From the NCBI RefSeq assembly GCF_036244575.1, contig NZ_BTRM01000027.1: 28,171 bases of DNA; one strand, written 5' to 3'. Within the stretch, counting starts at the first letter, position 1, and the number at the start of each line of letters is the position of its first letter. Source of the DNA: Aerococcus viridans. GTDB taxonomy: Bacteria; Bacillota; Bacilli; Lactobacillales; Aerococcaceae. This document shows positions 5,669 to 28,171 of this stretch, piece after piece. A program made the position numbers and the translations under genes. Below the pieces are notes generated by a model. That model had not been told where the DNA came from. It made no database searches and saw only the letters and a program-made list of their open reading frames with translations.

Positions 5669-5813
5669 TCAGTATCATTCCATTTCTGTATTTTCAATTT
5701 ATTAGTTCAATTATATATCAATAGAGTGTACTCTATTGATACAAATGTAGTAGACTGATAAAATCATAGTTAAGAGCGTCTCATAAGACTTGTCTCAAAA
5801 ATGAGGTGATATT
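5669..5813. promoter_or_regulatory. Divergent tnpA/resolvase intergenic region with the presumed res site
   Basis: It contains a 26-bp palindrome, TATCAATAGAGT-GT-ACTCTATTGATA (5716-5741). In Tn3-family elements, res lies between tnpA and tnpR. Confidence 0.6.
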
Positions 5814-6389: not shown

Positions 6390-6501
6390 CCATTCTGTAT
6401 TCCGCTAATGGGCAATATTTTTAAAGAAGAAAAGGAAACTATAAAATATTAACAGCCTCCTAGCGATGCCGAAAAGCCCTTTGATAAAAAAAGAATCATC
6501 A

Positions 6502-6558
6502 TCTTAAGAAATTCTTAGTCATTTATTATGTAAATGCTTATAAATTCGGCCCTATAAT
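6502..6558 (+). promoter_or_regulatory. vanR promoter region with a VanR-box-like sequence
   Basis: TCTTAAGAAATT (6502-6513) resembles the two boxes upstream of vanH. TATAAT is at 6553-6558. The -35 is weak, as expected for an activator-dependent promoter. Confidence 0.5.
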
Positions 6559-6602
6559 CTGATTAATTATTAAGGGCAAACTTATGTGAAAGGGTGATAA
6601 CT

Positions 6603-7298
6603 ATGAGCGATAAAATACTTATTGTGGATGATGAACATGAAATTGCCGATTTGGTTGAATTATACTTAAAAAACGAGAATTATACGGTTTTCAAATACTA
6701 TACCGCCAAAGAAGCATTGGAATGTATAGACAAGTCTGAGATTGACCTTGCCATATTGGACATCATGCTTCCCGGCACAAGCGGCCTTACTATCTGTCAA
6801 AAAATAAGGGACAAGCACACCTATCCGATTATCATGCTGACCGGGAAAGATACAGAGGTAGATAAAATTACAGGGTTAACAATCGGCGCGGATGATTATA
6901 TAACGAAGCCCTTTCGCCCACTGGAGTTAATTGCTCGGGTAAAGGCCCAGTTGCGCCGATACAAAAAATTCAGTGGAGTAAAGGAGCAGAACGAAAATGT
7001 TATCGTCCACTCCGGCCTTGTCATTAATGTTAACACCCATGAGTGTTATCTGAACGAGAAGCAGTTATTCCTTACTCCCACCGAGTTTTCAATACTGCGA
7101 ATCCTCTGTGAAAACAAGGGGAATGTGGTTAGCTCCGAGCTGCTATTTCATGAGATATGGGGCGACGAATATTTCAGCAAGAGCAACAACACCATCACCG
7201 TGCATATCCGGCATTTGCGCGAAAAAATGAACGACACCATTGATAATCCGAAATATATAAAAACGGTATGGGGGGTTGGTTATAAAATTGAAAAATAA
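6603..7298 (+). CDS. vanR: VanR response regulator (OmpR family), 231 aa
   Basis: ATG at 6603 gives MSDKILIVDDEHEI...; there is a receiver domain plus a winged-helix C-terminus. Length and position match Tn1546 vanR. The ORF-track start at 6594 is an upstream extension. Confidence 0.97.
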   Translation: MSDKILIVDDEHEIADLVELYLKNENYTVFKYYTAKEALECIDKSEIDLAILDIMLPGTSGLTICQKIRDKHTYPIIMLTGKDTEVDKITGLTIGADDYITKPFRPLELIARVKAQLRRYKKFSGVKEQNENVIVHSGLVINVNTHECYLNEKQLFLTPTEFSILRILCENKGNVVSSELLFHEIWGDEYFSKSNNTITVHIRHLREKMNDTIDNPKYIKTVWGVGYKIEK

Positions 7299-8430
7299 AA
7301 AAAACGACTATTCCAAACTAGAACGAAAACTTTACATGTATATCGTTGCAATTGTTGTGGTAGCAATTGTATTCGTGTTGTATATTCGTTCAATGATCCG
7401 AGGGAAACTTGGGGATTGGATCGTAAGTATTTTGCAAAACAAATATGACTTAAATCACCTGGACGCGATGAAATTATATCATTATTCCATACGGAACAAT
7501 ATAGATATCTTTATTTATGTGGCGATTGTCATTAGTATTCTTATTCTATGTCGCGTCATGCTTTCAAAATTCGCAAAATACTTTGACGAGATAAATACCG
7601 GCATTGATGTACTTATTCAGAACGAAGATAAACAAATTGAGCTTTCTGCGGAAATGGATGTTATGGAACAAAAGCTCAACACATTAAAACGGACTCTGGA
7701 AAAGCGAGAGCAGGATGCAAAGCTGGCCGAACAAAGAAAAAATGACGTTGTTATGTACTTGGCGCACGATATTAAAACGCCCCTTACATCCATTATCGGT
7801 TATTTGAGCCTGCTTGACGAGGCTCCAGACATGCCGGTAGATCAAAAGGCAAAGTATGTGCATATCACGTTGGACAAAGCGTATCGACTCGAACAGCTAA
7901 TCGACGAGTTTTTTGAGATTACACGGTATAACCTACAAACGATAACGCTAACAAAAACGCACATAGACCTATACTATACGCTGGTGCAGATGACCGATGA
8001 ATTTTATCCTCAGCTTTCCGCACATGGAAAACAGGCGGTTATTCACGCCCCCGAGGATCTGACCGTGTCCGGCGACCCTGATAAACTCGCGAGAGTCTTT
8101 AACAACATTTTGAAAAACGCCGCTGCATACAGTGAGGATAACAGCATCATTGACATTACCGCGGGCCTCTCCGGGGATGTGGTGTCAATCGAATTCAAGA
8201 ACACTGGAAGCATCCCAAAAGATAAGCTAGCTGCCATATTTGAAAAGTTCTATAGGCTGGACAATGCTCGTTCTTCCGATACGGGTGGCGCGGGACTTGG
8301 ATTGGCGATTGCAAAAGAAATTATTGTTCAGCATGGAGGGCAGATTTACGCGGAAAGCAATGATAACTATACGACGTTTAGGGTAGAGCTTCCAGCGATG
8401 CCAGACTTGGTTGATAAAAGGAGGTCCTAA
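7276..8430 (+). CDS. vanS: VanS sensor histidine kinase, 384 aa, TTG start, overlapping the vanR end by 23 nt
   Basis: Two N-terminal TM segments, an H-box (MYLAHDIKTPLTSI), and N and G boxes (NILKNAAAYS, DTGGAGLGLAIAK). It carries V50, Q54 and H69. Confidence 0.97.
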   Translation: MVIKLKNKKNDYSKLERKLYMYIVAIVVVAIVFVLYIRSMIRGKLGDWIVSILQNKYDLNHLDAMKLYHYSIRNNIDIFIYVAIVISILILCRVMLSKFAKYFDEINTGIDVLIQNEDKQIELSAEMDVMEQKLNTLKRTLEKREQDAKLAEQRKNDVVMYLAHDIKTPLTSIIGYLSLLDEAPDMPVDQKAKYVHITLDKAYRLEQLIDEFFEITRYNLQTITLTKTHIDLYYTLVQMTDEFYPQLSAHGKQAVIHAPEDLTVSGDPDKLARVFNNILKNAAAYSEDNSIIDITAGLSGDVVSIEFKNTGSIPKDKLAAIFEKFYRLDNARSSDTGGAGLGLAIAKEIIVQHGGQIYAESNDNYTTFRVELPAMPDLVDKRRS

Positions 8431-8445
8431 GAGATGTATATAATT

Positions 8446-8503
8446 TTTTAGGAAAATCTCAAGGTTATCTTTACTTTTTCTTAGGAAATTAACAATTTAA
8501 TAT
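8446..8503 (+). promoter_or_regulatory. vanH promoter region with two direct VanR-box-like repeats
   Basis: TTTTAGGAAAAT (8446-8457) and TCTTAGGAAATT (8479-8490) are about 33 bp apart. A -10-like TAATAT lies at 8498-8503. Confidence 0.5.
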
Positions 8504-8508
8504 TAAAA

Positions 8509-8557
8509 AACGGCTCGTTCTTACACGGTAGACTTAATACCGTAAGAACGAGCCGTT
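8509..8557 (+). terminator. Long perfect hairpin with a U-rich tail between vanS and vanH
   Basis: AACGGCTCGTTCTTAC (8509-8524) pairs with GTAAGAACGAGCCGTT (8542-8557). The stem extends inward (ACGGT/ACCGT) and is followed by TTCGTTCTT. Confidence 0.6.
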
Positions 8558-8644
8558 TTCGTTCTTCAGAGAAAGATTTGACAAGATTACCATTGGCATC
8601 CCCGTTTTATTTGGTGCCTTTCACAGAAAGGGTTGGTCTTAATT

Positions 8645-9613
8645 ATGAATAACATCGGCATTACTGTTTATGGATGTGAGCAGGATGAGGCAGATGCATT
8701 CCATGCTCTTTCGCCTCGCTTTGGCGTTATGGCAACGATAATTAACGCCAACGTGTCGGAATCCAACGCCAAATCCGCGCCTTTCAATCAATGTATCAGT
8801 GTGGGACATAAATCAGAGATTTCCGCCTCTATTCTTCTTGCGCTGAAGAGAGCCGGTGTGAAATATATTTCTACCCGAAGCATCGGCTGCAATCATATAG
8901 ATACAACTGCTGCTAAGAGAATGGGCATCACTGTCGACAATGTGGCGTACTCGCCGGATAGCGTTGCCGATTATACTATGATGCTAATTCTTATGGCAGT
9001 ACGCAACGTAAAATCGATTGTGCGCTCTGTGGAAAAACATGATTTCAGGTTGGACAGCGACCGTGGCAAGGTACTCAGCGACATGACAGTTGGTGTGGTG
9101 GGAACGGGCCAGATAGGCAAAGCGGTTATTGAGCGGCTGCGAGGATTTGGATGTAAAGTGTTGGCTTATAGTCGCAGCCGAAGTATAGAGGTAAACTATG
9201 TACCGTTTGATGAGTTGCTGCAAAATAGCGATATCGTTACGCTTCATGTGCCGCTCAATACGGATACGCACTATATTATCAGCCACGAACAAATACAGAG
9301 AATGAAGCAAGGAGCATTTCTTATCAATACTGGGCGCGGTCCACTTGTAGATACCTATGAGTTGGTTAAAGCATTAGAAAACGGGAAACTGGGCGGTGCC
9401 GCATTGGATGTATTGGAAGGAGAGGAAGAGTTTTTCTACTCTGATTGCACCCAAAAACCAATTGATAATCAATTTTTACTTAAACTTCAAAGAATGCCTA
9501 ACGTGATAATCACACCGCATACGGCCTATTATACCGAGCAAGCGTTGCGTGATACCGTTGAAAAAACCATTAAAAACTGTTTGGATTTTGAAAGGAGACA
9601 GGAGCATGAATAG
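8645..9613 (+). CDS. vanH: VanH D-lactate (D-2-hydroxyacid) dehydrogenase, 322 aa
   Basis: ATG at 8645 gives MNNIGITVYGCEQDEA...; the NAD-binding motif GVVGTGQIGKAV is present. The gene overlaps the vanA start by 8 nt. Confidence 0.97.
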   Translation: MNNIGITVYGCEQDEADAFHALSPRFGVMATIINANVSESNAKSAPFNQCISVGHKSEISASILLALKRAGVKYISTRSIGCNHIDTTAAKRMGITVDNVAYSPDSVADYTMMLILMAVRNVKSIVRSVEKHDFRLDSDRGKVLSDMTVGVVGTGQIGKAVIERLRGFGCKVLAYSRSRSIEVNYVPFDELLQNSDIVTLHVPLNTDTHYIISHEQIQRMKQGAFLINTGRGPLVDTYELVKALENGKLGGAALDVLEGEEEFFYSDCTQKPIDNQFLLKLQRMPNVIITPHTAYYTEQALRDTVEKTIKNCLDFERRQEHE

Positions 9614-10637
9614 AATAAAAGTTGCAATACTGTTTGGGGGTTGCTCAGATGAGCATGACGTATCGGTAAAATCTGCAATAGAGATAGCCGCTAACATTAA
9701 TAAAGAAAAATACGAGCCGTTATACATTGGAATTACGAAATCTGGTGTATGGAAAATGTGCGAAAAACCTTGCGCGGAATGGGAAAACGACAATTGCTAT
9801 TCAGCTGTACTCTCGCCGGATAAAAAAATGCACGGATTACTTGTTAAAAAGAACCATGAATATGAAATCAACCATGTTGATGTAGCATTTTCAGCTTTGC
9901 ATGGCAAGTCAGGTGAAGATGGATCCATACAAGGTCTGTTTGAATTGTCCGGTATCCCTTTTGTAGGCTGCGATATTCAAAGCTCAGCAATTTGTATGGA
10001 CAAATCGTTGACATACATCGTTGCGAAAAATGCTGGGATAGCTACTCCCGCCTTTTGGGTTATTAATAAAGATGATAGGCCGGTGGCAGCTACGTTTACC
10101 TATCCTGTTTTTGTTAAGCCGGCGCGTTCAGGCTCATCCTTCGGTGTGAAAAAAGTCAATAGCGCGGACGAATTGGACTACGCAATTGAATCGGCAAGAC
10201 AATATGACAGCAAAATCTTAATTGAGCAGGCTGTTTCGGGCTGTGAGGTCGGTTGTGCGGTATTGGGAAACAGTGCCGCGTTAGTTGTTGGCGAGGTGGA
10301 CCAAATCAGGCTGCAGTACGGAATCTTTCGTATTCATCAGGAAGTCGAGCCGGAAAAAGGCTCTGAAAACGCAGTTATAACCGTTCCCGCAGACCTTTCA
10401 GCAGAGGAGCGAGGACGGATACAGGAAACGGCAAAAAAAATATATAAAGCGCTCGGCTGTAGAGGTCTAGCCCGTGTGGATATGTTTTTACAAGATAACG
10501 GCCGCATTGTACTGAACGAAGTCAATACTCTGCCCGGTTTCACGTCATACAGTCGTTATCCCCGTATGATGGCCGCTGCAGGTATTGCACTTCCCGAACT
10601 GATTGACCGCTTGATCGTATTAGCGTTAAAGGGGTGA
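9606..10637 (+). CDS. vanA: VanA D-alanine--D-lactate ligase, 343 aa
   Basis: ATG at 9606 gives MNRIKVAILFGGCS.EHDVS...; it has an ATP-grasp fold and the canonical length. The ORF-track start at 9549 is an upstream extension inside vanH. Confidence 0.97.
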   Translation: MNRIKVAILFGGCSDEHDVSVKSAIEIAANINKEKYEPLYIGITKSGVWKMCEKPCAEWENDNCYSAVLSPDKKMHGLLVKKNHEYEINHVDVAFSALHGKSGEDGSIQGLFELSGIPFVGCDIQSSAICMDKSLTYIVAKNAGIATPAFWVINKDDRPVAATFTYPVFVKPARSGSSFGVKKVNSADELDYAIESARQYDSKILIEQAVSGCEVGCAVLGNSAALVVGEVDQIRLQYGIFRIHQEVEPEKGSENAVITVPADLSAEERGRIQETAKKIYKALGCRGLARVDMFLQDNGRIVLNEVNTLPGFTSYSRYPRMMAAAGIALPELIDRLIVLALKG

Positions 10638-10642
10638 TAAGC

Positions 10643-11251
10643 ATGGAAATAGGATTTACTTTTTTAGATGAAATAGTACACGGTGTTCGTTGGGACGCTA
10701 AATATGCCACTTGGGATAATTTCACCGGAAAACCGGTTGACGGTTATGAAGTAAATCGCATTGTAGGGACATACGAGTTGGCTGAATCGCTTTTGAAGGC
10801 AAAAGAACTGGCTGCTACCCAAGGGTACGGATTGCTTCTATGGGACGGTTACCGTCCTAAGCGTGCTGTAAACTGTTTTATGCAATGGGCTGCACAGCCG
10901 GAAAATAACCTGACAAAGGAAAGTTATTATCCCAATATTGACCGAACTGAGATGATTTCAAAAGGATACGTGGCTTCAAAATCAAGCCATAGCCGCGGCA
11001 GTGCCATTGATCTTACGCTTTATCGATTAGACACGGGTGAGCTTGTACCAATGGGGAGCCGATTTGATTTTATGGATGAACGCTCTCATCATGCGGCAAA
11101 TGGAATATCATGCAATGAAGCGCAAAATCGCAGACGTTTGCGCTCCATCATGGAAAACAGTGGGTTTGAAGCATATAGCCTCGAATGGTGGCACTATGTA
11201 TTAAGAGACGAACCATACCCCAATAGCTATTTTGATTTCCCCGTTAAATAA
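10643..11251 (+). CDS. vanX: VanX D-Ala-D-Ala dipeptidase, 202 aa
   Basis: ATG at 10643 gives MEIGFTFLDEIVHGVRWDAKYATWDNFTGK...; the Zn-ligand motif SxHxxGxAxD (SSHSRGSAIDL) is present. Confidence 0.97.
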   Translation: MEIGFTFLDEIVHGVRWDAKYATWDNFTGKPVDGYEVNRIVGTYELAESLLKAKELAATQGYGLLLWDGYRPKRAVNCFMQWAAQPENNLTKESYYPNIDRTEMISKGYVASKSSHSRGSAIDLTLYRLDTGELVPMGSRFDFMDERSHHAANGISCNEAQNRRRLRSIMENSGFEAYSLEWWHYVLRDEPYPNSYFDFPVK

Positions 11252-11583
11252 ACTTTTAACCGTTGCACGGACAAACTATATAAGCTAACTCTTTCGGCAG
11301 GAAACCCGACGTATGTAACTGGTTCTTAGGGAATTTATATATAGTAGATAGTATTGAAGATGTAAGGCAGAGCGATATTGCGGTCATTATCTGCGTGCGC
11401 TGCGGCAAGATAGCCTGATAATAAGACTGATCGCATAGAGGGGTGGTATTTCACACCGCCCATTGTCAACAGGCAGTTCAGCCTCGTTAAATTCAGCATG
11501 GGTATCACTTATGAAAATTCATCTACATTGGTGATAATAGTAAATCCAGTAGGGCGAAATAATTGACTGTAATTTACGGGGCA

Positions 11584-11617
11584 AAACGGCACAATCTCAA
11601 ACGAGATTGTGCCGTTT
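11584..11617 (+). other. Perfect 15-bp stem-loop in the vanX-vanY intergenic region
   Basis: AAACGGCACAATCTC (11584-11598), loop AAAC, GAGATTGTGCCGTTT (11603-11617). No clear U-tract follows. Confidence 0.5.
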
Positions 11618-11678
11618 AAGGGGAAGATTCTAGAAATATTTCATACTTCCAACTATATAGTTAAGGAGGAGACTGAAA

Positions 11679-12590
11679 ATGAAGAAGTTGTTTTTTTTAT
11701 TGTTATTGTTATTCTTAATATACTTAGGTTATGACTACGTTAATGAAGCACTGTTTTCTCAGGAAAAAGTCGAATTTCAAAATTATGATCAAAATCCCAA
11801 AGAACATTTAGAAAATAGTGGGACTTCTGAAAATACCCAAGAGAAAACAATTACAGAAGAACAGGTTTATCAAGGAAATCTGCTATTAATCAATAGTAAA
11901 TATCCTCTTCGCCAAGAAAGTGTGAAGTCAGATATCGTGAATTTATCTAAACATGACGAATTAATAAATGGATACGGGTTGCTTGATAGTAATATTTATA
12001 TGTCAAAAGAAATAGCACAAAAATTTTCAGAGATGGTCAATGATGCTGTAAAGGGTGGCGTTAGTCATTTTATTATTAATAGTGGCTATCGAGACTTTGA
12101 TGAGCAAAGTGTGCTTTACCAAGAAATGGGGGCTGAGTATGCCTTACCAGCAGGTTATAGTGAGCATAATTCAGGTTTATCACTAGATGTAGGATCAAGC
12201 TTGACGAAAATGGAACGAGCCCCTGAAGGAAAGTGGATAGAAGAAAATGCTTGGAAATACGGGTTCATTTTACGTTATCCAGAGGACAAAACAGAGTTAA
12301 CAGGAATTCAATATGAACCATGGCATATTCGCTATGTTGGTTTACCACATAGTGCGATTATGAAAGAAAAGAATTTCGTTCTCGAGGAATATATGGATTA
12401 CCTAAAAGAAGAAAAAACCATTTCTGTTAGTGTAAATGGGGAAAAATATGAGATCTTTTATTATCCTGTTACTAAAAATACCACCATTCATGTGCCGACT
12501 AATCTTCGTTATGAGATATCAGGAAACAATATAGACGGTGTAATTGTGACAGTGTTTCCCGGATCAACACATACTAATTCAAGGAGGTAA
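11679..12590 (+). CDS. vanY: VanY D,D-carboxypeptidase, 303 aa
   Basis: N-terminal membrane anchor (MKKLFFLLLLLFLIYLG), the SxHxxGxAxD-type motif (SEHNSGLSLDV), and AGGAGG upstream. Confidence 0.97.
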   Translation: MKKLFFLLLLLFLIYLGYDYVNEALFSQEKVEFQNYDQNPKEHLENSGTSENTQEKTITEEQVYQGNLLLINSKYPLRQESVKSDIVNLSKHDELINGYGLLDSNIYMSKEIAQKFSEMVNDAVKGGVSHFIINSGYRDFDEQSVLYQEMGAEYALPAGYSEHNSGLSLDVGSSLTKMERAPEGKWIEENAWKYGFILRYPEDKTELTGIQYEPWHIRYVGLPHSAIMKEKNFVLEEYMDYLKEEKTISVSVNGEKYEIFYYPVTKNTTIHVPTNLRYEISGNNIDGVIVTVFPGSTHTNSRR

Positions 12591-12742
12591 GGATGGCGGA
12601 ATGAAACCAACGAAATTAATGAACAGCATTATTGTACTAGCACTTTTGGGGTAACGTTAGCTTTTTAATTTAAAACCCACGTTAACTAGGACATTGCTAT
12701 ACTAATGATACAACTTAAACAAAAGAATTAGAGGAAATTATA

Positions 12743-13228
12743 TTGGGAAAAATATTATCTAGAGGATTGCTAGCTTTATATTTAGTGACACTAATCTGGT
12801 TAGTGTTATTCAAATTACAATACAATATTTTATCAGTATTTAATTATCATCAAAGAAGTCTTAACTTGACTCCATTTACTGCTACTGGGAATTTCAGAGA
12901 GATGATAGATAATGTTATAATCTTTATTCCATTTGGCTTGCTTTTGAATGTCAATTTTAAAGAAATCGGATTTTTACCTAAGTTTGCTTTTGTACTGGTT
13001 TTAAGTCTTACTTTTGAAATAATTCAATTTATCTTCGCTATTGGAGCGACAGACATAACAGATGTAATTACAAATACTGTTGGAGGCTTTCTTGGACTGA
13101 AATTATATGGTTTAAGCAATAAGCATATGAATCAAAAAAAATTAGACAGAGTTATTATTTTTGTAGGTATACTTTTGCTCGTATTATTGCTCGTTTACCG
13201 TACCCATTTAAGAATAAATTACGTGTAA
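12743..13228 (+). CDS. vanZ: VanZ (teicoplanin resistance-associated membrane protein), 161 aa, TTG start
   Basis: A multi-TM 161-aa ORF that is the last gene before IRR, as in Tn1546. Confidence 0.95.
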   Translation: MGKILSRGLLALYLVTLIWLVLFKLQYNILSVFNYHQRSLNLTPFTATGNFREMIDNVIIFIPFGLLLNVNFKEIGFLPKFAFVLVLSLTFEIIQFIFAIGATDITDVITNTVGGFLGLKLYGLSNKHMNQKKLDRVIIFVGILLLVLLLVYRTHLRINYV

Positions 13229-20029: not shown

Positions 20030-20244
20030 AATATAATCTCCTTATTTCTATCATACTCTTGTCTTAGTGACTAGGTCACTTTAATTATAGCAGTTTAATG
20101 TTTCATTCATTCACTACTTGTTCGACGCCTCTGTCGGCATAAAGAAGTCAATAAAGAAAACGTACTATTTTCGTCTATTTTGGGTACACCCTATTGTGGG
20201 TTATTTGAATTATACTTATACGTATATTCATAAGTGTAATCATA

Positions 20245-20288
20245 AGCATAAGTATAATTATATGTATACATATAATTATACTTATGCT
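20245..20288. repeat. 44-bp perfect palindrome overlapping the parA promoter (candidate par operator/centromere)
   Basis: AGCATAAGTATAATTATATGTA|TACATATAATTATACTTATGCT. TATAAT at 20288-20293 follows directly. Related ATAAGYRTA motifs occur at 20210-20250. Confidence 0.85.
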
Positions 20289-20318
20289 ATAATAGAATTA
20301 AAGAGAAAGGGGTATATC

Positions 20319-21110
20319 ATGAAACTAATTAGTTTTAGCGCAATCAAGGGTGGTGTTGGAAAAACAACATTAGCATACAATTATGGAGAATGGTTAGCAA
20401 ATAAAGGATACAATATATTGTTCATTGATTTAGACCATCAATGTAATTTGACACAAATTTACGATATTTATGATGTCAAAGATACCATAGCGAATGCCTT
20501 TACTAATACAGGTGATGTTAAAATTCAAAGTGTTGGTTCAAATATTGATATCATTGCTGGTAATTTACAATTAGATAAAATTGAAAGTCAACTCGAAAAT
20601 AAGAGTAATAAGGATATGTTACTTTATATGTGGCTTGATGATAATTATGAGGATAAAAAGTTAGATCATTATGATTATATTATATTTGATTGCCACCCTG
20701 ACTTTTCTATTGCCACTAGAAACGCAATTGCGGTTAGCCACACAATAATTAGTCCTATCACTCCTAGCGAGCATGGGTATAGAGCTAAATTTAACTTAGA
20801 AGAAAGATTAGATGAATTTAAAAAAGAAACAATCGATTATAAAACAAGAGAATCCTATGTTACTGGAAAATTATATTTTGTTGGAAATATGATAAAGCAT
20901 AATACTAAATCTTCCAGAGATTTTTTAGAAACTGTTGCGGAAGATGAATCTGTCATCACATACTTTCCTTCAAAAGAATTGATGAATAAATCTACTTTAG
21001 AACATATTTCTTTACCAAAAATGGAGAAAAACATGAATAGTAGCGATAAAATCTTTTTTGAAAATATTAATAAATCTTTTAATATAATGACTGATGTAAC
21101 GGAAGATTAA
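20319..21110 (+). CDS. parA: ParA/Soj-family plasmid partition ATPase, 263 aa
   Basis: The ATG at 20319 follows GAAAGGGG. The deviant Walker A motif is KGGVGKTT in MKLISFSAIKGGVGKTTLAYNYG. The ORF-track start at 20118 only extends through the AT-rich repeats. Confidence 0.9.
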   Translation: MKLISFSAIKGGVGKTTLAYNYGEWLANKGYNILFIDLDHQCNLTQIYDIYDVKDTIANAFTNTGDVKIQSVGSNIDIIAGNLQLDKIESQLENKSNKDMLLYMWLDDNYEDKKLDHYDYIIFDCHPDFSIATRNAIAVSHTIISPITPSEHGYRAKFNLEERLDEFKKETIDYKTRESYVTGKLYFVGNMIKHNTKSSRDFLETVAEDESVITYFPSKELMNKSTLEHISLPKMEKNMNSSDKIFFENINKSFNIMTDVTED

Positions 21111-21121
21111 GGAGAATTAAA

Positions 21122-21337
21122 ATGGCATTTGAAAAAAAAGATACAAAGATATCTGAAGCATTAAAAGAATCTAAAGAAAAAGGAATTCCCTCTATTCAAC
21201 ATTCTGAAAAAACAAAACCTTATACTTTTACGCTTCAACCTAGTAATAGAGAAAAATTAAATCAACTAGCTTCTAAACGAGGATATGCTTCAGCTTCAAA
21301 ATTTTTGAATGATTTAATTGAAAATATGCAAATATAA
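21122..21337 (+). CDS. Small ribbon-helix-helix type partition/centromere-binding protein candidate, 71 aa
   Basis: It sits immediately after parA, with GGAGA upstream. The C-terminal half (KPYTFTLQPSNREKLNQLASKRGYASASKFLNDLIE) has the beta-strand-helix-helix pattern of CopG/ParG-like proteins. Confidence 0.7.
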   Translation: MAFEKKDTKISEALKESKEKGIPSIQHSEKTKPYTFTLQPSNREKLNQLASKRGYASASKFLNDLIENMQI

Positions 21338-21400
21338 GTATACTTACAAATATAAATATAAATATAAATATAAATATATGTATGCTTATATTTATATGGT
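21334..21400. repeat. AT-rich repeats downstream of the par operon, including (AAATAT)x5 and ATAAGTATAC-type motifs
   Basis: The palindrome AAGTATACTT lies at about 21335-21344. The hexamer AAATAT is repeated five times at 21348-21377. TATGCTTATA-type motifs echo those upstream of parA. Confidence 0.75.
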
Positions 21401-21510
21401 TTAAATGTTAATTGTCTATATAATTTTCCTATAAAACAAATATATTCGCATATAAGAAAATTATACGCGCATACCACTTACATTATGTTAAAATAAATTT
21501 AATAAACACG

Positions 21511-21546
21511 AAAAAAAAAGCGGTAGATTGAAAATCAATCTACCGC
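21511..21546 (-). terminator. Strong minus-strand rho-independent terminator in the par-repA intergenic region
   Basis: A 12-bp perfect stem, GCGGTAGATTGA (21520-21531) / TCAATCTACCGC (21535-21546). On the minus strand it is followed by T9 (plus-strand A9 at 21511-21519). Confidence 0.7.
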
Positions 21547-21617
21547 TTGAAAATAAAAATCTCAACTCACCTAGTCGACCAAAACTTGAAGTTGAGAAAG
21601 AACTTTTATAAGTTTAC
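21511..21617 (-). ncRNA. Candidate about 105-nt small RNA in the repA upstream region
   Basis: The minus-strand promoter is TTTACA (21648-21653), 17 nt, TAAACT (21625-21630). The transcript would contain the hairpin 21560-21597 (TCTCAACT/AGTTGAGA) and end at the T9 terminator. There is no ORF with an RBS. Confidence 0.25.
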
Positions 21618-21671
21618 AAGACCCAGTTTACTAGACTACTCCTGTTTTGTAAAGTAAATAACATATAAAAG

Positions 21672-21716
21672 CCCTTTCTTAATTTCTAGACTACGAGTAA
21701 GAGAATTAAGAAAGGG
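21672..21716 (+). promoter_or_regulatory. 13-bp perfect hairpin immediately upstream of the repA start codon, covering the only SD-like sequence
   Basis: CCCTTTCTTAATT (21672-21684) pairs with AATTAAGAAAGGG (21704-21716). TTTTT follows, then the ATG at 21726. Confidence 0.6.
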
Positions 21717-21725
21717 TTTTTAATT

Positions 21726-22796
21726 ATGGCTAGAAAAAATATAAAAGAATTAGCAAGTCAACGTTTCATTACAGTACCTAAACTGCTTCTTTATGGAGAA
21801 GAATATAAAAAATTAAGTAGTAATGCATTTAAAACATACGTTAGTTTATATGACCGCTACACATTAAGTGTTATGAATAATTGGACTGATGAAGACGGTA
21901 ATATTTATTTTGTTTATGACTTAGAAGAATTATCACAAATAACTGGAATTGGAAAAAAAGGATTAGTTAATGCTAGAAAGCAACTTAAAGAAGCTGGTCT
22001 TTTAGAAGAAGTGTATACAGGTAGAAATAATCGTTTATATCTACATGATCCTAAACCGCAAAATGATGATGAAGCACATTATATCATTACTGAAAAAAAT
22101 GATTTAGAAGATACCAGTAAAATTTCAGAAGAAGAAAAAGAATTACGCTCCCTTAATTCTAAAAATAATAAAAACACTAAAAAAACGCACGATAGTGCCC
22201 AAGGAACTATCGTGCAAGAAAGACCGTCATATCAACAAAGTGATGATTTAGAAAAACGCACGATAGTGCCTAAGGAACTATCAGATAGTGCCCAAGGAAC
22301 CCCTAATGATACTAACCTAATGAAACTATATAAAGATATTAAAGATATTAAAGATCAAGCTGATTTTCAAAACGAACAAATGGCCAAACAATTTTCTAAA
22401 AACGAAAAAGCTACCGAGCAAGAACTGATTGAACAGTATGTTGAAGAAAATGAATTGGTTTCTGCTTATGGAGAACAAACCATTCAACTAGTAAGAAATT
22501 ATAGTTTTAATGATTTAGAACAGTTTAAAGTCTATATTGACAAATTCTATTTTGGTTGGAAATCAGCGGAAAAAGATACTGGCGTTAAAATCAATCCGTA
22601 CGAAAAAGCAGCACTACATGATGAACTCGCAAGTACCTTTAAGCGTGTTATTATCCAATTTAAACAAGGAAAAACAAAAAATATTAATAGTTATCTTTAT
22701 ATCTCTTTAAAAAATGTGTTTAAAGATTATGCAGAAACTCAACAAGGAAATGAAACAGATTTACCACCAGTACCAATTGATTCATGGTTAAAATAG
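21726..22796 (+). CDS. repA: RepA_N-family plasmid replication initiator, 356 aa
   Basis: The N-terminus (FITVPKLLLYGEEYKKLSSNAFKTYVSLYDRYTLS...NGNIYFVY...ELSQITGIGKKGLVNARKQLKEAGLLE) is typical of the RepA_N domain of enterococcal/staphylococcal theta plasmids. Direct repeats lie in the central region. Confidence 0.9.
   Translation: MARKNIKELASQRFITVPKLLLYGEEYKKLSSNAFKTYVSLYDRYTLSVMNNWTDEDGNIYFVYDLEELSQITGIGKKGLVNARKQLKEAGLLEEVYTGRNNRLYLHDPKPQNDDEAHYIITEKNDLEDTSKISEEEKELRSLNSKNNKNTKKTHDSAQGTIVQERPSYQQSDDLEKRTIVPKELSDSAQGTPNDTNLMKLYKDIKDIKDQADFQNEQMAKQFSKNEKATEQELIEQYVEENELVSAYGEQTIQLVRNYSFNDLEQFKVYIDKFYFGWKSAEKDTGVKINPYEKAALHDELASTFKRVIIQFKQGKTKNINSYLYISLKNVFKDYAETQQGNETDLPPVPIDSWLK
22181..22300 (+). 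repeat. Direct repeats inside repA (candidate origin iterons)
   Basis: AAAAACGCACGATAGTGCCCAAGGAACTATC (22181-22211) recurs as AAAAACGCACGATAGTGCCTAAGGAACTATC (22252-22282). A third core, GATAGTGCCCAAGGAAC, lies at 22284-22300. Confidence 0.85.
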
Positions 22797-22875
22797 GTTA
22801 TTAGAAGCTCATATTTGCGTTTTAAGACGTTTTAAAACAAGTTGAGTACATTTATATGCAAAGGAGTGTAGGAGC

Positions 22876-23058
22876 GTGGAGAAAGCAAATACAAAAGAAT
22901 TATGGATATTATTTGAAAATACGAATATTCAACACTTACTAGAGAGTGCGGAAAAAGCTGAAAGTGATGATGAAGAAATATTTTTTAATACAATGTTTAA
23001 TTTAAAGTTGCAGGAAAGGCAACAAGAAATTATTCAACAAGATAGGTTCGTGATGTAA
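22876..23058 (+). CDS. Small acidic protein, 60 aa, candidate antitoxin of the downstream zeta-like kinase (GTG start)
   Basis: AAGGAG (22861-22866) lies 9 nt before the GTG at 22876. The stop overlaps the next gene's start (TAATG at 23056-23060). The central part is acidic (AEKAESDDEE). Confidence 0.55.
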   Translation: MEKANTKELWILFENTNIQHLLESAEKAESDDEEIFFNTMFNLKLQERQQEIIQQDRFVM

Positions 23059-23633
23059 TGGACAAACCTAAATATATTATCGTTGCTGGTGTGAACGGTG
23101 CTGGCAAAAGTACTTTGTTCCAAACTTATCCTGAAATTTTTATGAATACAAAAAGGGTAAATGCAGATGAAATTTTGCGTAAAAATCATGGCGATTGGCA
23201 AAATCAAAAAGATAATATTCTTGCTGGTAGAGAGACCGTAAAGAAAATTCAATATAACATTGCAAATCAAATTTCTTTCCACCAAGAAACTACATTAGCA
23301 AGTAGCTTAAATGGATTCCTAAAAAATATTCAAAAAACTAAACAGAAAGGTTTTCAGGTGGAACTACTATATGTTTCATTAGATACCCCACAAAGGGCAA
23401 TTGAACGTGTAAATCATCGTGTCCAATTAGGAGGACATGGTATACCAAATGATGTTATTATCAAAAGATATTTTAAATCACTAGAAAATTTGAAAGAAAT
23501 AGTAAAATATGTTGATAGTTTTCAATTATTTGATAATAGTCAATATTTAAAACGTATTACAAAGATAGAGAGAAAATATTTAGATAATTGGTTAGACCAA
23601 AATACACTATTACCCAAAAAAGGAGAAATTTAG
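23058..23633 (+). CDS. Zeta-toxin-family / AAA P-loop kinase-like protein, 191 aa
   Basis: Walker A motif GVNGAGKST near the N-terminus, followed by VNADEI. The short about 190-aa architecture is typical of zeta-like P-loop proteins (Pfam Zeta_toxin / COG4185 type, from memory). Confidence 0.75.
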   Translation: MDKPKYIIVAGVNGAGKSTLFQTYPEIFMNTKRVNADEILRKNHGDWQNQKDNILAGRETVKKIQYNIANQISFHQETTLASSLNGFLKNIQKTKQKGFQVELLYVSLDTPQRAIERVNHRVQLGGHGIPNDVIIKRYFKSLENLKEIVKYVDSFQLFDNSQYLKRITKIERKYLDNWLDQNTLLPKKGEI

Positions 23634-23926
23634 AACGTGAATATTTAAAGAAAAATATTCTTGAAATGCAGGAAGAAGATCCTGCAATGATGTATGGAGA
23701 ACCTGAAGAAATTACTGCAGAAAAATTACAAACCTTTGAAAAAGGTTTAACAGGCGAAGAATGGTTAGCAGAAGATATTAAGTCAGATGTTATTGCAAAA
23801 GATTCAGAAAAATCTTTTACGTTTCCTAAAGAAAAAATTTCAAATAGTAATTTTCAACCAATAGAAAAAGTTGCTGGAGATTTACTAGAAAAAGAAAATG
23901 AAGTAAATAAAAGTCCAAAAATTTAG
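23588..23926 (+). CDS. Hypothetical acidic protein (112 aa from TTG 23588, or 86 aa from ATG 23666)
   Basis: The ORF overlaps the zeta-like gene by 46 nt. It has no convincing RBS at either start and I recognise no domain. Confidence 0.35.
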   Translation: MVRPKYTITQKRRNLEREYLKKNILEMQEEDPAMMYGEPEEITAEKLQTFEKGLTGEEWLAEDIKSDVIAKDSEKSFTFPKEKISNSNFQPIEKVAGDLLEKENEVNKSPKI

Positions 23927-23938
23927 AAGTAAAAAAAT

Positions 23939-24088
23939 GGGGCTGGGACAAAAGGTCTCTCAAAAAAAACACACTCCCAAAACTATGAACTATTTTGTTC
24001 AATAGTGGGAGTGTATTTTTCTATATCTTTATAAAAATAAACGAAAGTGGGACTACTTTTTTCGCAAAAGTAGTTTTGTCCCAGCCTC
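23939..24088 (+). mobile_element. MITE-like 150-bp structured repeat, copy A
   Basis: 15-bp terminal inverted repeats: GGGGCTGGGACAAAA (23939-23953) and TTTTGTCCCAGCCTC (24074-24088). There are internal hairpins and no plausible coding capacity. It is nearly identical to the reverse complement of 27034-27182. Confidence 0.8.
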
Positions 24089-24289
24089 ATTTTTTTCTTT
24101 TAATGCTTTTAAAAATATTTCAATATCTTCAGGAGAAGTATCTTGTAATGAAAAATATTTTTCTAAAAGTGCACCTTTTTGAATTAATTGATGTGTACGT
24201 TCTTTTCTTTTTTTCAATTTTTCGCGTCGAATTTTTGCTTGCACTTGATTTGCTTCGACCATATATTTTTTTAAATTAATCTCACTCAT
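24053..24289 (-). CDS. DUF3847-like small protein (relaxosome-associated type), 78 aa from ATG 24289 (81 aa from TTG 24298)
   Basis: MSEINLKKYMVEANQVQAKIRREKLKKRKERTHQLIQKGALLEKYF...FLKALKEK shows the coiled-coil plus R-THxLIxxGAxLE pattern I associate with DUF3847 proteins encoded next to Firmicute relaxases. The last 12 codons lie inside MITE copy A. Confidence 0.6.
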   Translation of the reverse strand: MSEINLKKYMVEANQVQAKIRREKLKKRKERTHQLIQKGALLEKYFSLQDTSPEDIEIFLKALKEKNEAGTKLLLRKK

Positions 24290-24305
24290 ATAAATCAACT
24301 AATTC

Positions 24306-24596
24306 TTAAAATTGATGTTTATCTTGCATGTTATTTTGTTGTTGCTGATTTATATCTTCAGTTGAATTATCCGTATCATTTTCTTGTAAATACGTATTTA
24401 ATTCTGCCGTATTAATAGCAGAAATAATTTTAGTAACAACTGACTTAATATCTTTTTTAGTTCCTAAATCTTCAAAAGGAATATTTAATTGTTCGATTAT
24501 TTCTTTACCGAAATCTGTGTAAACTTTCTCTTTTTCAATTTCAATTCGTTCAGCTAATTCTTTGTATTGTGACATTAATTTTTCTATATTCGCCAT
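24306..24596 (-). CDS. Hypothetical small protein, 96 aa from ATG 24596, first gene of the operon divergent from the relaxase
   Basis: AAGGGG lies upstream of the ATG. The protein has an acidic, Gln-rich C-terminus. It appears translationally coupled to the DUF3847-like ORF. I recognise no family. Confidence 0.55.
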   Translation of the reverse strand: MANIEKLMSQYKELAERIEIEKEKVYTDFGKEIIEQLNIPFEDLGTKKDIKSVVTKIISAINTAELNTYLQENDTDNSTEDINQQQQNNMQDKHQF

Positions 24597-24685
24597 ATTC
24601 AACACCCCTTTTTATAATCATAATATAGAAAAAATAAATAAAATTTACAACTATATCGAAAAATGATAAAATTGAATTAAGAAAA

Positions 24686-24809
24686 AGGGCGCACTTACAC
24701 ATTATCTTTCAGATTGATGTATTTGTGCGAAATCCCTTATCACCAAAAGGTGGATTCAGCATTTTTGATCCTTTGCATGTGGCAAAGGATTTATGTGTAA
24801 GTCTACCCT
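24686..24809. other. Candidate oriT (MOBQ type)
   Basis: The reverse complement of 24686-24697 is TAAGTGCGCCCT. On the plus strand, the IR ATCCTTTGC (24768-24776) / GCAAAGGAT (24782-24790) is followed 7 nt later by TAAGTCTACCCT (24798-24809). It lies in the divergent intergenic region upstream of the relaxase gene. Confidence 0.65.
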
Positions 24810-24883
24810 TAGCGTTTCACGCAGGGCAGACTTATGAACTCGTTTCACTCGTGCGTAAAGATTAAAAGAAAGGAGCATGAACA

Positions 24884-26887
24884 ATGGCAATTTATCATTT
24901 ATCTTTGAATAATATTAGTCGTGGTAAAGGACAATCAGCTATTGCTAGTGCTTCTTATCGTAGTGGCGAAAAATTATATAGCGAACGTTATGGTAAAACA
25001 AGTTATTATGTACGAGAAGTAAAACCTGAAACATTTATTTTAGCACCAAACCATGCTCCAAAATGGGCAAATAATCGTGAAAAATTATGGAATGAAGTAG
25101 AAAAAATTGAAAAATCTAGTCGTGCAAGATTAGCAAAAGAAATTAATATTGCATTACCGATTGAGTTAGATAAAGATGAACAAAAATCTCTTGTAAAACA
25201 ATATGTTCAAGAAAACTTTGTAGATGAGGGAATGGTTGCAGACGTAGCAATCCATAGAGATGATAACAACAATCCGCATGCTCATATTATGCTGACCAAC
25301 CGTCCTTTTAATCCTGACGGAACATGGGGAAGTAAAGCACATATAATTTATATTTTAGATGAAGACGGGAATAAACAGCGAACTGAAAATGGGAACATTC
25401 GCAGTAGAAAAGATAATACAACTAACTGGAATGATAAGGAAACTTTAAATAAATGGCGAAAAAATTGGGCAAAAATTACGAATCAATTTTTAGAAAAAAA
25501 TCAATTCTCGGAACGTATTACAGAACAATCTTATGCTGAGCAGGGATTGGAAATTGAACCAACAATTCACGAGGGATACGTTGCTAGAGAAATGGAAAAA
25601 AGAGGTCAACTTTCTGACAGATGTGAAGAAAATAGACAAATTAAAAAAAGAAATTATGCGCAAAATCAAACAAGAAGTGAAGCAGTAAAAGCAGAGAGAT
25701 TAAGAGAAATTTCTGCTTCTTTAAGTCCGCAAGAAAAACAAAATATTGTGAAGATTGCCAAATCATTACGGACAACAATTAATCCACAAACTTTTGATTA
25801 TGCAGGACTAATTGATAAAGAACGTATGGTGAACAATTGGGAACATTCCTTAGAACATAATGCAATTATTACGGATATTGGTATTGATGAAAAAGATTTA
25901 AAAAATCTTCAAATGACCAAAGAAAATATTCAATTAGGGCAAGAAATTATGCATAAACAAGCAGATAGAATTATGGAAAAATACTATCCTGAATTGAATG
26001 AAAAGTCTAAATTCTCACCTTATTATAAAGCAGTTATTGCACAGGAAACGATTCAGCAAGATAAAGTATTATCTTATACAACATTGAAAGATATTATGAA
26101 TGAAGCAAAAGACAATCGTTTGAATTATATGCTACAAACAATTGTGAAAAATCCATATGAAAAGCCAGTTGCTGAATATCAAAAATCATTTATGTATAGT
26201 CTGAAAAATATTCAAGATTTCCATGAAAAATATCATGTTGATGAAGATAATATCTCGACTTTATCAGCAGAAAAACAGCAAGAATATAAACAATTATTGA
26301 AGCAAAAAGATTTTAACGTTGATACGATGAATGTGTTAAATAAATACTATACAAAAGTTATTTTAGAGCAATATCCAAATGCCAATTTAAGAAGCTATAA
26401 AATTGACCAAAAAGAGGCATTAGCGAAAGCTATTGACTATTACGGTAATCGCTATTCTATTCAAAAATTAGCTAAAATTGTTGAAAAAGAAACACCTAAT
26501 AAGTACAACCAGCAAGAGCAGGCATTTGGTAAAGCCTTATTAAATAGAATTGATAAAGGACGACTATCTAAAAAAGATTGGACGACTATTCAATCTGATC
26601 CGCAACTCAAAGAAATCTTTGATACGGTAACAGATGAGAAAACACGTCCAATGTTCGAAAAAGAAATTCAAGGACAAACATTATCTCAAGGTCATTTATC
26701 ACAACGCAGTCATTTTGGCAGTCTATTTGGACAAGTCAATATCCTTGATAACCTAGCAAATGCACAAAAAGAGAATATTCAAAGAGAGCGAGAAGATGAG
26801 AAATTACGGAAAAATAAAAAACGGAAGAAACAACAGCACAACAAGCAATCGCAGAAAAAGAATCGTGGTAATTCGCCAAGTCTTTAA
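24884..26887 (+). CDS. MobA/MobL-family (MOBQ) relaxase, 667 aa
   Basis: AGGAG lies 8 nt upstream. The N-terminal relaxase domain has a catalytic-Tyr region (AIASASYRSGEKL) and the histidine triad HRDDNNNPHAHIM. The C-terminal half is long, Lys/Gln-rich and helical. Confidence 0.9.
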   Translation: MAIYHLSLNNISRGKGQSAIASASYRSGEKLYSERYGKTSYYVREVKPETFILAPNHAPKWANNREKLWNEVEKIEKSSRARLAKEINIALPIELDKDEQKSLVKQYVQENFVDEGMVADVAIHRDDNNNPHAHIMLTNRPFNPDGTWGSKAHIIYILDEDGNKQRTENGNIRSRKDNTTNWNDKETLNKWRKNWAKITNQFLEKNQFSERITEQSYAEQGLEIEPTIHEGYVAREMEKRGQLSDRCEENRQIKKRNYAQNQTRSEAVKAERLREISASLSPQEKQNIVKIAKSLRTTINPQTFDYAGLIDKERMVNNWEHSLEHNAIITDIGIDEKDLKNLQMTKENIQLGQEIMHKQADRIMEKYYPELNEKSKFSPYYKAVIAQETIQQDKVLSYTTLKDIMNEAKDNRLNYMLQTIVKNPYEKPVAEYQKSFMYSLKNIQDFHEKYHVDEDNISTLSAEKQQEYKQLLKQKDFNVDTMNVLNKYYTKVILEQYPNANLRSYKIDQKEALAKAIDYYGNRYSIQKLAKIVEKETPNKYNQQEQAFGKALLNRIDKGRLSKKDWTTIQSDPQLKEIFDTVTDEKTRPMFEKEIQGQTLSQGHLSQRSHFGSLFGQVNILDNLANAQKENIQREREDEKLRKNKKRKKQQHNKQSQKKNRGNSPSL

Positions 26888-27033
26888 AATTTAAATGAAA
26901 ATGCGATAGAATAAAAATAAACAAAACAGATTGGAGGTTATGTAGTGTCGGATAATAAAAATACTAAATATCGTAGTTGAATCTCTACCCGAAAACTGAA
27001 CACTCAAAAAAAAGAGTGTTGTAAGTTTGAACT

Positions 27034-27182
27034 GAGGCTGGGACAAAACTACTTTTGCGAAAAAAGTAGTCCCACTTTCGTTTATTTTTATAAAGATATA
27101 GAAAAACACACTCCCACTATTGAACAAAAAAGTTCATAGTTTTGGGAGTGTATTTTTTTGAGAGACCTTTTGTCCCAGCCTC
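27034..27182 (-). mobile_element. MITE-like 149-bp structured repeat, copy B (inverted relative to copy A)
   Basis: TIRs are GAGGCTGGGACAAAA (27034-27048) and TTTTGTCCCAGCCTC (27168-27182). It differs from the reverse complement of copy A by four substitutions and one 1-nt indel in an A-run. Confidence 0.8.
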
Positions 27183-27199
27183 TTCTTTGCTATTCATTT

Positions 27200-28171
27200 T
27201 TAGAAGTTTTTGTTCGTTAACGGGAGTATTTCGCTTTCGATTACATCGGTGTACTCTTGTTTAGCGAATTTTTTCACTCTGAATTTTTTCTGTACTTTCT
27301 CCCGATTTTCTTCTAGGTAACGATCTTTATCCATATTCTCAAGGAGATTACTCTCACCAGTTTGTTTACCTGATTTTTCTGGTTTGTAATTCTCGATTAA
27401 GTAATGCAAATCATCTTCTTGGACATAGAGACTTTCCGATAAACCATGAACCAATTCACTGACACGCTCATCAATACGTTTTTCGATTTCACTCGCTACA
27501 TTAAGCGTATCTTCTGCTTGTGCTAACTCATTACCATCCTTGATAGTTGAGAAGATATCTTCAATAATTTCACCTAATTTAGGGTTATTATCTTTAAACT
27601 TCGTTAAGTAAGCTTCAGCGTCAACAATACGTTTGATCCGATTTTGACTATCAGGTTCATTTACGATCGTTTGCATTAACAGCATTAAGTACTCGTAATC
27701 AATTTGCTGCTTCCCTACTTCAGACAACTGGTAATCGAAGTCAATCGTTAAGTCATCTTCTTCATCTTCATCGATTTGTTCTCTAATTTTTTCTAAGGCG
27801 TTCTCATACTTACCATGGTAGGACTCTATTACTTCAGGACGTAAGCCATATTGTTGTTCAAACACATCTTCGTCAAACTCTGAATATACTTGGATAGCCC
27901 CTAAGCTTTTATCGAATTCTTGATAAGCTTTCACAAAGAGTTTAAGGGTATCAACATCGTCATTGACATCAATACTCTCTGGACTAGGCGCAACAGAAAT
28001 TAAACGCTCATAAGCGTCCTGGAAGCGTCCGTATGACTCATTCCACCCTGGCGCCTGTATCGCGCTCTCTCCACCGTTTGAATACAAAATAAAGGCCTTT
28101 TCGACCGCTTCTTGATACTGATTTGGATATTGGAAAGTCATAATTTGACCGTATTGTTTATCCTTGTCGTA
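27200..28171 (-). CDS. hsdR: Type I restriction enzyme R subunit (HsdR), C-terminal part; 5' part outside the window
   Basis: The frame stays open upstream of the listed Met to the window edge (..YDKDKQYGQIMTFQY..). The sequence pattern (LKLFVKAYQEF...DDLTIDFDYQLSEVGKQQIDYEYLMLLMQ) resembles the EcoR124I-type HsdR C-terminal domain. Confidence 0.75.
   Translation of the reverse strand, partial: YDKDKQYGQIMTFQYPNQYQEAVEKAFILYSNGGESAIQAPGWNESYGRFQDAYERLISVAPSPESIDVNDDVDTLKLFVKAYQEFDKSLGAIQVYSEFDEDVFEQQYGLRPEVIESYHGKYENALEKIREQIDEDEEDDLTIDFDYQLSEVGKQQIDYEYLMLLMQTIVNEPDSQNRIKRIVDAEAYLTKFKDNNPKLGEIIEDIFSTIKDGNELAQAEDTLNVASEIEKRIDERVSELVHGLSESLYVQEDDLHYLIENYKPEKSGKQTGESNLLENMDKDRYLEENREKVQKKFRVKKFAKQEYTDVIESEILPLTNKNF

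Follow-up and report, generated by a model that had tools for sequence, protein, structure and literature searches.

Inverted MITEs beside oriT-mobQ on an Aerococcus viridans vanA plasmid as probable, separately acquired replacements of terminator hairpins

The Aerococcus viridans contig NZ_BTRM01000027.1 (assembly GCF_036244575.1), of which we analyzed a stretch of 28,171 nucleotides (the window), carries an origin of transfer (oriT) and the gene of a MobQ relaxase between two inverted copies, A and B, of a repeat of about 150 bp. An initial annotation of the window had read this arrangement as a composite mobile unit that a related insertion sequence (IS) could mobilize in trans. Do the repeats delimit a transposon, or did each of them reach its position on its own? 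We favor the second answer, to which we give a probability of about 0.85: A and B would be separately acquired miniature transposable elements with inverted repeats (MITEs), derived from the IS1182 family, that replaced terminator hairpins and that flank oriT-mobQ by coincidence and not as the ends of a transposon.

Empty and filled alleles at copy A

The history of copy A (150 bp, 23939-24088, plus strand from left to right end, delimited by a repeat-arm search and by reading the sequence) is recorded in plasmids that are nearly identical to the window. Using the zeta-toxin-like protein encoded next to A as a query, we retrieved short assembled contigs of such plasmids, including those designated L046 and L052. 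The metagenomic contig L046 agrees with the window at 98-100% identity as far as position 23938 and again from 24089 to approximately 24687, which leaves at least 600 bp of matching sequence on each side of A. At the position of A it has a 28-bp perfect palindrome, ACGTAAGTTATTAAAAAATAACTTACGT, composed of ACGTAAGTTATT, AAAA and AATAACTTACGT and set between the same AAAAAAAT and ATTTTTTT flanks. This hairpin folds at -26 and -23 kcal/mol on the two strands and has the canonical form of a bidirectional intrinsic terminator. Judging from the comparison with L046, the A-tract AAAAAAAT at 23931-23938, left of copy A, was kept from the bidirectional terminator that was replaced; its partner T-tract ATTTTTTT follows on the right (24089-24096). 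In the contig L052 the same site is filled, by a MITE 100% identical to copy A; the site is therefore polymorphic for the presence of the element (empty in L046, filled in L052 and in the window). In Aerococcus plasmids that are more distant, another hairpin occupies the position, indicating that a plain hairpin is the ancestral state. Because the empty allele retains such a hairpin, the MITE appears to have replaced the stem-loop exactly and without duplication. Furthermore, the absence from L046 of A alone means that A inserted singly, between flanks that had been contiguous beforehand.

A comparable situation was observed on the Carnobacterium viridans plasmid pDC01-1 (L004), where a MITE at 2999-3146 occupies an equivalent intergenic spot in a related backbone, between ArdC and small open reading frames (ORFs) beside mobQ. 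Its orientation is opposite to that of A, suggesting an independent insertion into the same terminator position.

A MITE family with an IS1182-family partner

Copies of the element were found well beyond this plasmid. A single exact 24-nt core pattern, run against one genome of each species, matched 30 genome loci; these belong to Aerococcus, Desemzia, Carnobacterium and Pisciglobus and to related metagenome-assembled genomes (MAGs). The pattern was present on 11 contigs of Aerococcus sp. 1KP-2016, with several matches located at contig ends. Among the plasmids in PLSDB, copies are carried by C. viridans pDC01-1 (three), by A. viridans pAv-optrA and, in truncated form, by Enterococcus faecium plasmids. 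The full-length copies (n = 17) are 148-154 bp long and 89-98% identical to copy A; they sit at unrelated loci in four genera, all 17 keep the terminal inverted repeats (TIRs), and the similarity of their flanks stops directly beyond these. The consensus fold of the family has three parts, a TIR stem, a central hairpin between A- and T-runs and a third hairpin, and three Aerococcus copies show a compensatory change from U-A to G-C at one pair. The genomic context is also characteristic: 12 of the 15 copies that could be scored lie between convergent genes and the other three after a tandem gene, with none between divergent genes (binomial P ~1e-5). Most copies are within 7-60 bp of a stop codon, and many have an A-run on one flank and a T-run on the other.

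The initial annotation had called the repeat MITE-like, a term that suits an element that is multi-copy, TIR-bounded, noncoding and matched by full-length IS elements. It had also seen no clear target duplications, and we found no consistent pattern of them across the 17 copies and none at the isogenic site; their absence is expected for elements of the IS1182/IS1272 type and is no argument against mobility. The annotation's enterococcal framing, on the other hand, is doubtful; for the plasmid backbone as for the MITE family, the nearest affinities are with Aerococcus and Carnobacteriaceae. We could not find this family of Aerococcaceae and Carnobacteriaceae described in the searchable literature: searches for a known MITE of Carnobacterium or Aerococcus, or for pAv-optrA, gave no relevant result, and Rfam, searched with gathering and E-value thresholds, had no family for the element and returned only sub-threshold chance matches to microRNAs.

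Two further structures came to light in the course of these searches. One, a TIR-bounded element of ~970 bp with a GNAT gene in Desemzia (L011, L023 and L027), was considered as a cargo-carrying copy. It proved to be one locus retrieved three times, its second "TIR" being a degenerate end beside a P-type ATPase gene, and the cargo reading was dropped. The other is a highly structured repeat of ~220 bp present in three copies in Aerococcus sp. 1KP-2016 (L032, 139-361; L021, reverse complement, ~120-340; L016, reverse complement, ~60-265). This repeat opens with a single, unpaired MITE-like terminus and has no match in Rfam; downstream of it, two of the copies have the MITE and the remaining one has a hairpin of unrelated sequence.

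The partner that could mobilize the MITE was identified through its termini, which in copies A and B are GAGGCTGGGACAAAA and TTTTGTCCCAGCCTC (A has a GGGG variant at its left end). A scan of metagenome contigs for the 17-nt terminus gave 120 hits, mostly chance matches; those with a partner terminus within 4 kb, the only ones that were kept, revealed elements of ~1.75 kb bounded by the MITE termini (L075, L101 and L145). Together with L188 and L189, these are IS1182-family elements ending in GAGGCTGGGACAAAA...TTTTGTCCCAGCCTC. Among the metagenomic elements, the two whose ORFs were examined, L075 and L101, each encode a protein of 508-512 amino acids that scores 345-356 bits against the NCBIfam model NF033551, "IS1182 family transposase" (cut-off 270), and also matches the Pfam families DDE_Tnp_1, DDE_Tnp_1_6 and DUF772. 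Annotated relatives with the same ends were found by tblastn in PLSDB on an Aerococcus tenax plasmid (74.5% identity) and on C. viridans pDC01-1 (56.6% identity), where the IS relative coexists with the three MITE copies. The transposases of these relatives are WP_195852868.1 (A. tenax) and WP_007722232.1 (pDC01-1). Thus, the related IS with matching TIRs that the initial annotation proposed to look for does exist. An IS1182-family element of Enterococcus hirae ends in GAGAGTGGGACAATAGT, which matches the MITE terminus at 13 of 17 positions and marks the terminus as a family signature. The IS is laid out as terminus, hairpin, transposase gene, hairpin and terminus, and the repeat has the same layout minus the gene, making it a MITE in the strict sense. 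Full-length IS copies also sit in the same type of context as the MITE copies.

We infer from these similarities that the MITE is mobilized in trans. An IS1182-family transposase would recognize the 15-17-bp termini (GAGGCTGGGACAAAAGG ... TTTTGTCCCAGCCTC) and direct insertion into the stem-loop of an intrinsic terminator, with deletion of the hairpin and without target duplication. The nested hairpins of the MITE, lodged between the A- and T-tracts that were kept, would then most likely function as a replacement bidirectional terminator. In the plasmid studied here, A would have taken the place of the 28-bp terminator at which the zeta-like and DUF3847 genes converge, in a RepA_N/MobQ backbone that already existed, and B, which occupies the terminator position just after the restriction gene hsdR, would have entered the plasmid with the hsdR segment.

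In several genera of Bacilli, termini of the form GAGGCTGGGACAAAAGG ... GTCCCAGCCTC also enclose numerous small elements (130-550 bp) that have nothing else in common and differ in their internal hairpins, as well as minimal hairpins of 42-43 bp that resemble ordinary terminators. Loci with the same termini include L057 and L062 (L. plantarum), L058 (Listeria seeligeri), L059, L068 and L084 (Lysinibacillus type), L061 (Niallia), and L076, L144, L080 and L161. In Priestia megaterium plasmids (L056, 2503-2625), an element with these termini is truncated by an inverted repeat of the Tn3 family, similar to the end of Tn1546 (...CTTAACGTTGTAAATCCGCATCTTCCTGACTGACGCTACCCC).

Separate histories of A and B and the rival readings

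Copy B (149 bp, 27034-27182, minus strand) is inverted relative to A. Repeat searches of the window detected the pair as inverted arms of 130 nt (23963-24092 and 27030-27159, 97% complementary) and of 36 nt (23933-23968 and 27153-27188, 92% complementary), and the alignment reproduced the four substitutions (element positions 2, 32, 54 and 77) and the 1-nt indel, located in an A-run, that had been reported initially. The 15-bp TIRs are perfect in B (27034-27048 and 27168-27182) and match at 14 of 15 positions in A (23939-23953, GGGGCTGGGACAAAA, and 24074-24088), the left end of which reads GGGG instead of GAGG. The 13-nt TIR core GGCTGGGACAAAA occurs four times in the window, each time as an element end, compared to 0.56 occurrences expected by chance. 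Internal hairpins and a lack of coding capacity had been noted from the start and are confirmed. Each strand folds at approximately -69 kcal/mol (z of about -9 to -10) into an outer TIR stem, a central hairpin (~23965-24020 in A, ~27102-27157 in B) and a third hairpin (24052-24074 and 27048-27070, respectively), and the sole ORFs are artifacts that start inside the repeat. The two predicted proteins concerned (23995-24279, plus strand; 26891-27127, minus strand) had been correctly dismissed as artifacts, yet they are not identical as described: only their first 31 residues, encoded by the MITE, are common to both before they diverge.

Despite this resemblance, neither A nor B has the other as its nearest relative within the family. 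They are 96.7% identical to each other in the alignment, whereas the copy on the Desemzia incerta chromosomal contig L037 is 97.3% identical to A and 98.0% identical to B. That each is closer to another family copy argues against local duplication. Copy B is tied to its neighbor, the 3' part of a type I restriction gene, hsdR (27200-28171, minus strand, EcoR124_C), which runs off the end of the window and has its stop codon 17 bp from B. The hsdR part is 93-96% identical to L001, L037 and L007, and B with its hsdR flank is 95-96% identical to the D. incerta contig (L037) and to pAv-optrA (L007). The same element lies at the same distance from the hsdR stop codon in these two and in an A. viridans MAG contig (L060). 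A protein search with the HsdR C-terminus, run at an overly strict E-value, returned one match. In E. faecium plasmids from pig and chicken, the hsdR site carries a 51-nt short form consisting of a terminus, the third hairpin and a terminus. When the short form (L001, 3987-4037) is compared with the long form (L037, 4336-4484), its 5-nt loop is inverted while the outer GGGG/GAGG polymorphism has not moved, which suggests flipping in place or a deletion within the palindrome.

Could the repeats instead make the segment between them invertible? RecA-dependent recombination between A and B would flip the 2.9-kb oriT-mobQ segment and maintain two isoforms in the population. Inverted repeats of 150 bp with 97% identity and a longest shared stretch of ~73 nt are, in principle, an adequate substrate, and the metagenomic contigs L051 and L053-L055 break inside the MITE, as expected if more than one copy is present. 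No isoform was seen, however; the sole contig reading through A (L052) has the arrangement of the window, and the present orientation agrees with the gene order, taken as ancestral, that is found in the related plasmids L046, L040 and L002. Inversion would also carry oriT and the relaxase gene together and confer no obvious phenotype, so little functional change is expected from it. For these reasons we consider an invertible segment unlikely.

A bolder proposal, and an improbable one, is that the stretch from A to B works as a functional unit like the staphylococcal TnSha1, in which an IS1182-family transposase in trans would use the outer termini of both MITEs to move oriT-MobQ into terminator hairpins of other replicons; the same-terminus MITEs and the minimal TIR-TIR hairpins across Bacilli would then belong to a single terminator-rewriting transposase system. 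If this were true, non-mobilizable plasmids would become mobilizable.

That the locus arose in this manner, with the inverted MITEs as a composite, transposase-less transposon that a related IS in trans carried, along with oriT, mobQ and two accessory ORFs, as one block of 3.24 kb, we regard as very improbable and largely refuted. In its favor, two end-bearing elements bracket the cargo, their outermost TIRs are correctly oriented, matching IS elements are present within the same host range, and IS1182-family ends can mobilize neighboring DNA if there is another sequence that resembles an end, as in TnSha1, which consists of IS1272 and an alternative IRL' (PMC4923244). Yet L046 is contiguous across the site and is without copy A only, B is linked to hsdR in three other replicons, and no second 3.24-kb unit was found in PLSDB plasmids or protein-indexed assemblies.

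The interior of the segment is, moreover, a mosaic whose borders are not the MITE ends. Sequence of the L046 type (24089-24684, 96-100% identical in 50-nt windows) extends to the candidate nic core of oriT, GTAAGTGCGCCCTT (24685-24700, minus strand), located 185-200 bp upstream of mobQ, which we take to match the MOBQ nic consensus of RSF1010/pSK41 type. From the nic core through mobQ to 26976-26978, the sequence is instead of the Aerococcus-plasmid type represented by pAv-optrA (~91% identical overall). The window is therefore chimeric exactly at the nic core when compared with L046 and L002, suggesting a module exchange at nic, either by relaxase-mediated recombination at oriT or by a crossover in the short conserved core. 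The relaxase itself (667 amino acids, 24884-26887, plus strand) has a MobA_MobL domain (PF03389, 2.8e-86) and matches NES_C_h, is 91-94% identical to relaxases of Aerococcus plasmids and, with the adjacent candidate nic core, makes up a MOBQ oriT-relaxase module. It is followed by a stub of ~11 codons (26945-26978, plus strand) of the ORF that comes after mobQ in Aerococcus plasmids, with homology stopping at 26976-26978. Next is a fragment of 52 bp (26977-27028, plus strand) from the end of a different repeated element that bears a hairpin; the fragment has a sharp left boundary and an internal hairpin with a 17-bp stem, the 3' arm of which is cut short a few bases before B. Unrelated element remnant thus separates the mobilization module from B by 56 bp. 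The fragment is 96% identical to sequence on 70 Listeria monocytogenes plasmids, at two places in each, and on E. gilvus pCR1C (L038, 3001-3052; L039, 3001-3052). It is probably the remnant of an IS end, because the Listeria copies lie directly upstream of an IS3-family transposase. Hence, the oriT, the relaxase and the two accessory ORFs that the unit was said to hold exactly are all there, but so are the stub, broken at 26978, and this remnant.

Scarcely credible is the idea that the repeats are immobile terminator cassettes, conserved by vertical inheritance or duplicated locally; terminator positions, strong folding and the fact that in Lactiplantibacillus plasmids the same stem occurs in simple hairpins serving as plain terminators would suit it, but not the presence/absence polymorphism in an otherwise 98-100% identical context, the copies 89-98% identical to A at unrelated loci in four genera, ends identical to those of transposase-encoding IS elements, or the fact that A and B are not mutual nearest relatives.

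Several observations also weigh against our preferred reading of A and B as separate replacements of terminators. We have one clean isogenic empty site only, and PLSDB contained no empty sites for the related elements of Listeria seeligeri and Lysinibacillus. A simple terminator scan of 23700-27400 (loops of 3-8 nt) reported no terminator, a result that follows from loop and stem limits that exclude long nested hairpins; the terminator activity of the MITE copies is itself predicted from structure and position only. The window has no IS1182-family transposase. As the family scan used a single exact pattern, the distribution and copy number given above are lower bounds, and the lack of a match to this pattern in Enterococcus reference genomes does not establish that the family is absent from Enterococcus chromosomes. 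Lastly, the inner junction of B is unexplained. Its inner flank is unique to the window and its hsdR-side flank is conserved elsewhere, which implies that a rearrangement ended exactly at the MITE terminus. This junction abuts the hairpin with the shortened 3' arm and looks like an IS1182-type junction; it may reflect the arrival of B and the hsd genes within a larger, TnSha1-like unit bounded by the termini and inserted into the hairpin at 26990-27033, or else a transposase-mediated deletion.

The genes around copy A fit the convergent context of the family. On the left, the zeta-toxin-like gene (23058-23926, plus strand, PF06414) faces A with its 3' end and stops 13 bp from it. The gene is split into ORFs of 191 and 112 amino acids in the window and of 198 and 86 amino acids in L051/L052; the single ORF of 296 amino acids in L046 points to a likely frameshift at ~23589-23666 in the window. 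On the right is a DUF3847 gene (24053-24298, minus strand), whose last 11 codons (EAGTKLLLRKK) and stop codon come from copy A, so that through the insertion the 3' end of the gene is now encoded by the MITE. L046 and L052 both conserve the accessory ORF of 99 amino acids in the mobilization region (24306-24605, minus strand), which matches no Pfam family. No record was retrieved when the exact protein sequences of MobQ, the HsdR fragment and the 99-amino-acid product were looked up. Elsewhere in the window, positions 2702-13228 hold a vanA cluster of Tn1546 type, with a Tn3-family transposase of 988 amino acids, a series of ORFs consistent with the vanA operon and BLAST matches to vanZ. The ParA/RepA_N/MobQ backbone (20118-26978) has its closest relatives in Aerococcus plasmids and unassigned metagenomic contigs, and not in enterococcal plasmids.

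Probable terminator replacement: related systems and consequences

In behavior and in the family of the matching IS, the closest known system is IS1272/TnSha1 of staphylococci. These IS1182-family elements "always" integrate into hairpins, several of which are terminators confirmed by RNA-seq, and the target is partly deleted and not duplicated (Furi et al., 2016, PMC4923244). Insertion into terminator hairpins, with target deletion and no target duplication (PMC4923244), is also what the comparison with L046 indicates for the MITE; the matching full-length IS shares the transposase family (NF033551), and the ends of both can in principle mobilize flanking DNA. The differences are that the window element is a 150-bp noncoding derivative without a transposase, that it is hosted by Aerococcaceae and Carnobacteriaceae, along with Enterococcus plasmids, and not by staphylococci, that the whole 28-bp hairpin was removed at copy A whereas deletion is partial at TnSha1 sites, and that the matching IS transposases are only ~40-43% identical to the staphylococcal members.

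Other small repeats share some of these properties. Enterococcus faecalis repeats (EFAR), compared here by description only, are like the window MITE palindromic intergenic repeats of 130-170 bp in a lactic acid bacterium. Reportedly (FEMS Microbiol Lett, 2007), they integrate into stem-loop sequences that are then largely deleted. The EFAR sources we covered attribute no transposase partner to them, whereas the window MITE has one in the IS1182 family. EFAR (Efa-1 in PMC2267715) has been counted among the bacterial MITEs (PMC3733652). SPRITE and RUP are, similarly, small noncoding intergenic repeats with terminator-like hairpins that are thought to act on transcription (PMC10969869). They differ in host and sequence family, and for neither of them has replacement of a target hairpin been demonstrated; RUP, unlike the window MITE, is associated with IS630-type elements and duplicates its target. 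The bracketing of a gene module by two non-autonomous elements with TIRs, as by A and B, is known from integron mobilization units and from the MITE-flanked class 1 integrons of Acinetobacter. Such MITE-flanked cargo units are encountered at new sites as blocks, with duplications of the target on their flanks. By contrast, the A-to-B block was not seen elsewhere, and copy A has a solo empty site of its own.

The reading of A and B as independent arrivals accounts for a puzzling pair of repeats on a vanA (Tn1546) plasmid and disposes of the false lead that its relaxase cassette is a transposon. The oriT-mobQ segment would lie between the two copies because the MITE gathers at convergent gene ends, which are also the borders of modules, and a preference for such borders can mimic composite transposons. 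L046 and the window provide a natural before/after pair of an IS1182-type element swapping out a terminator hairpin. The behavior, described for a full IS in the case of IS1272, is thereby extended to a MITE family. The consequences for annotation include spurious ORFs, altered gene 3' ends, such as the C-terminus of the DUF3847 protein, and broken short-read assemblies. On resistance plasmids, such elements also constitute portable homology.

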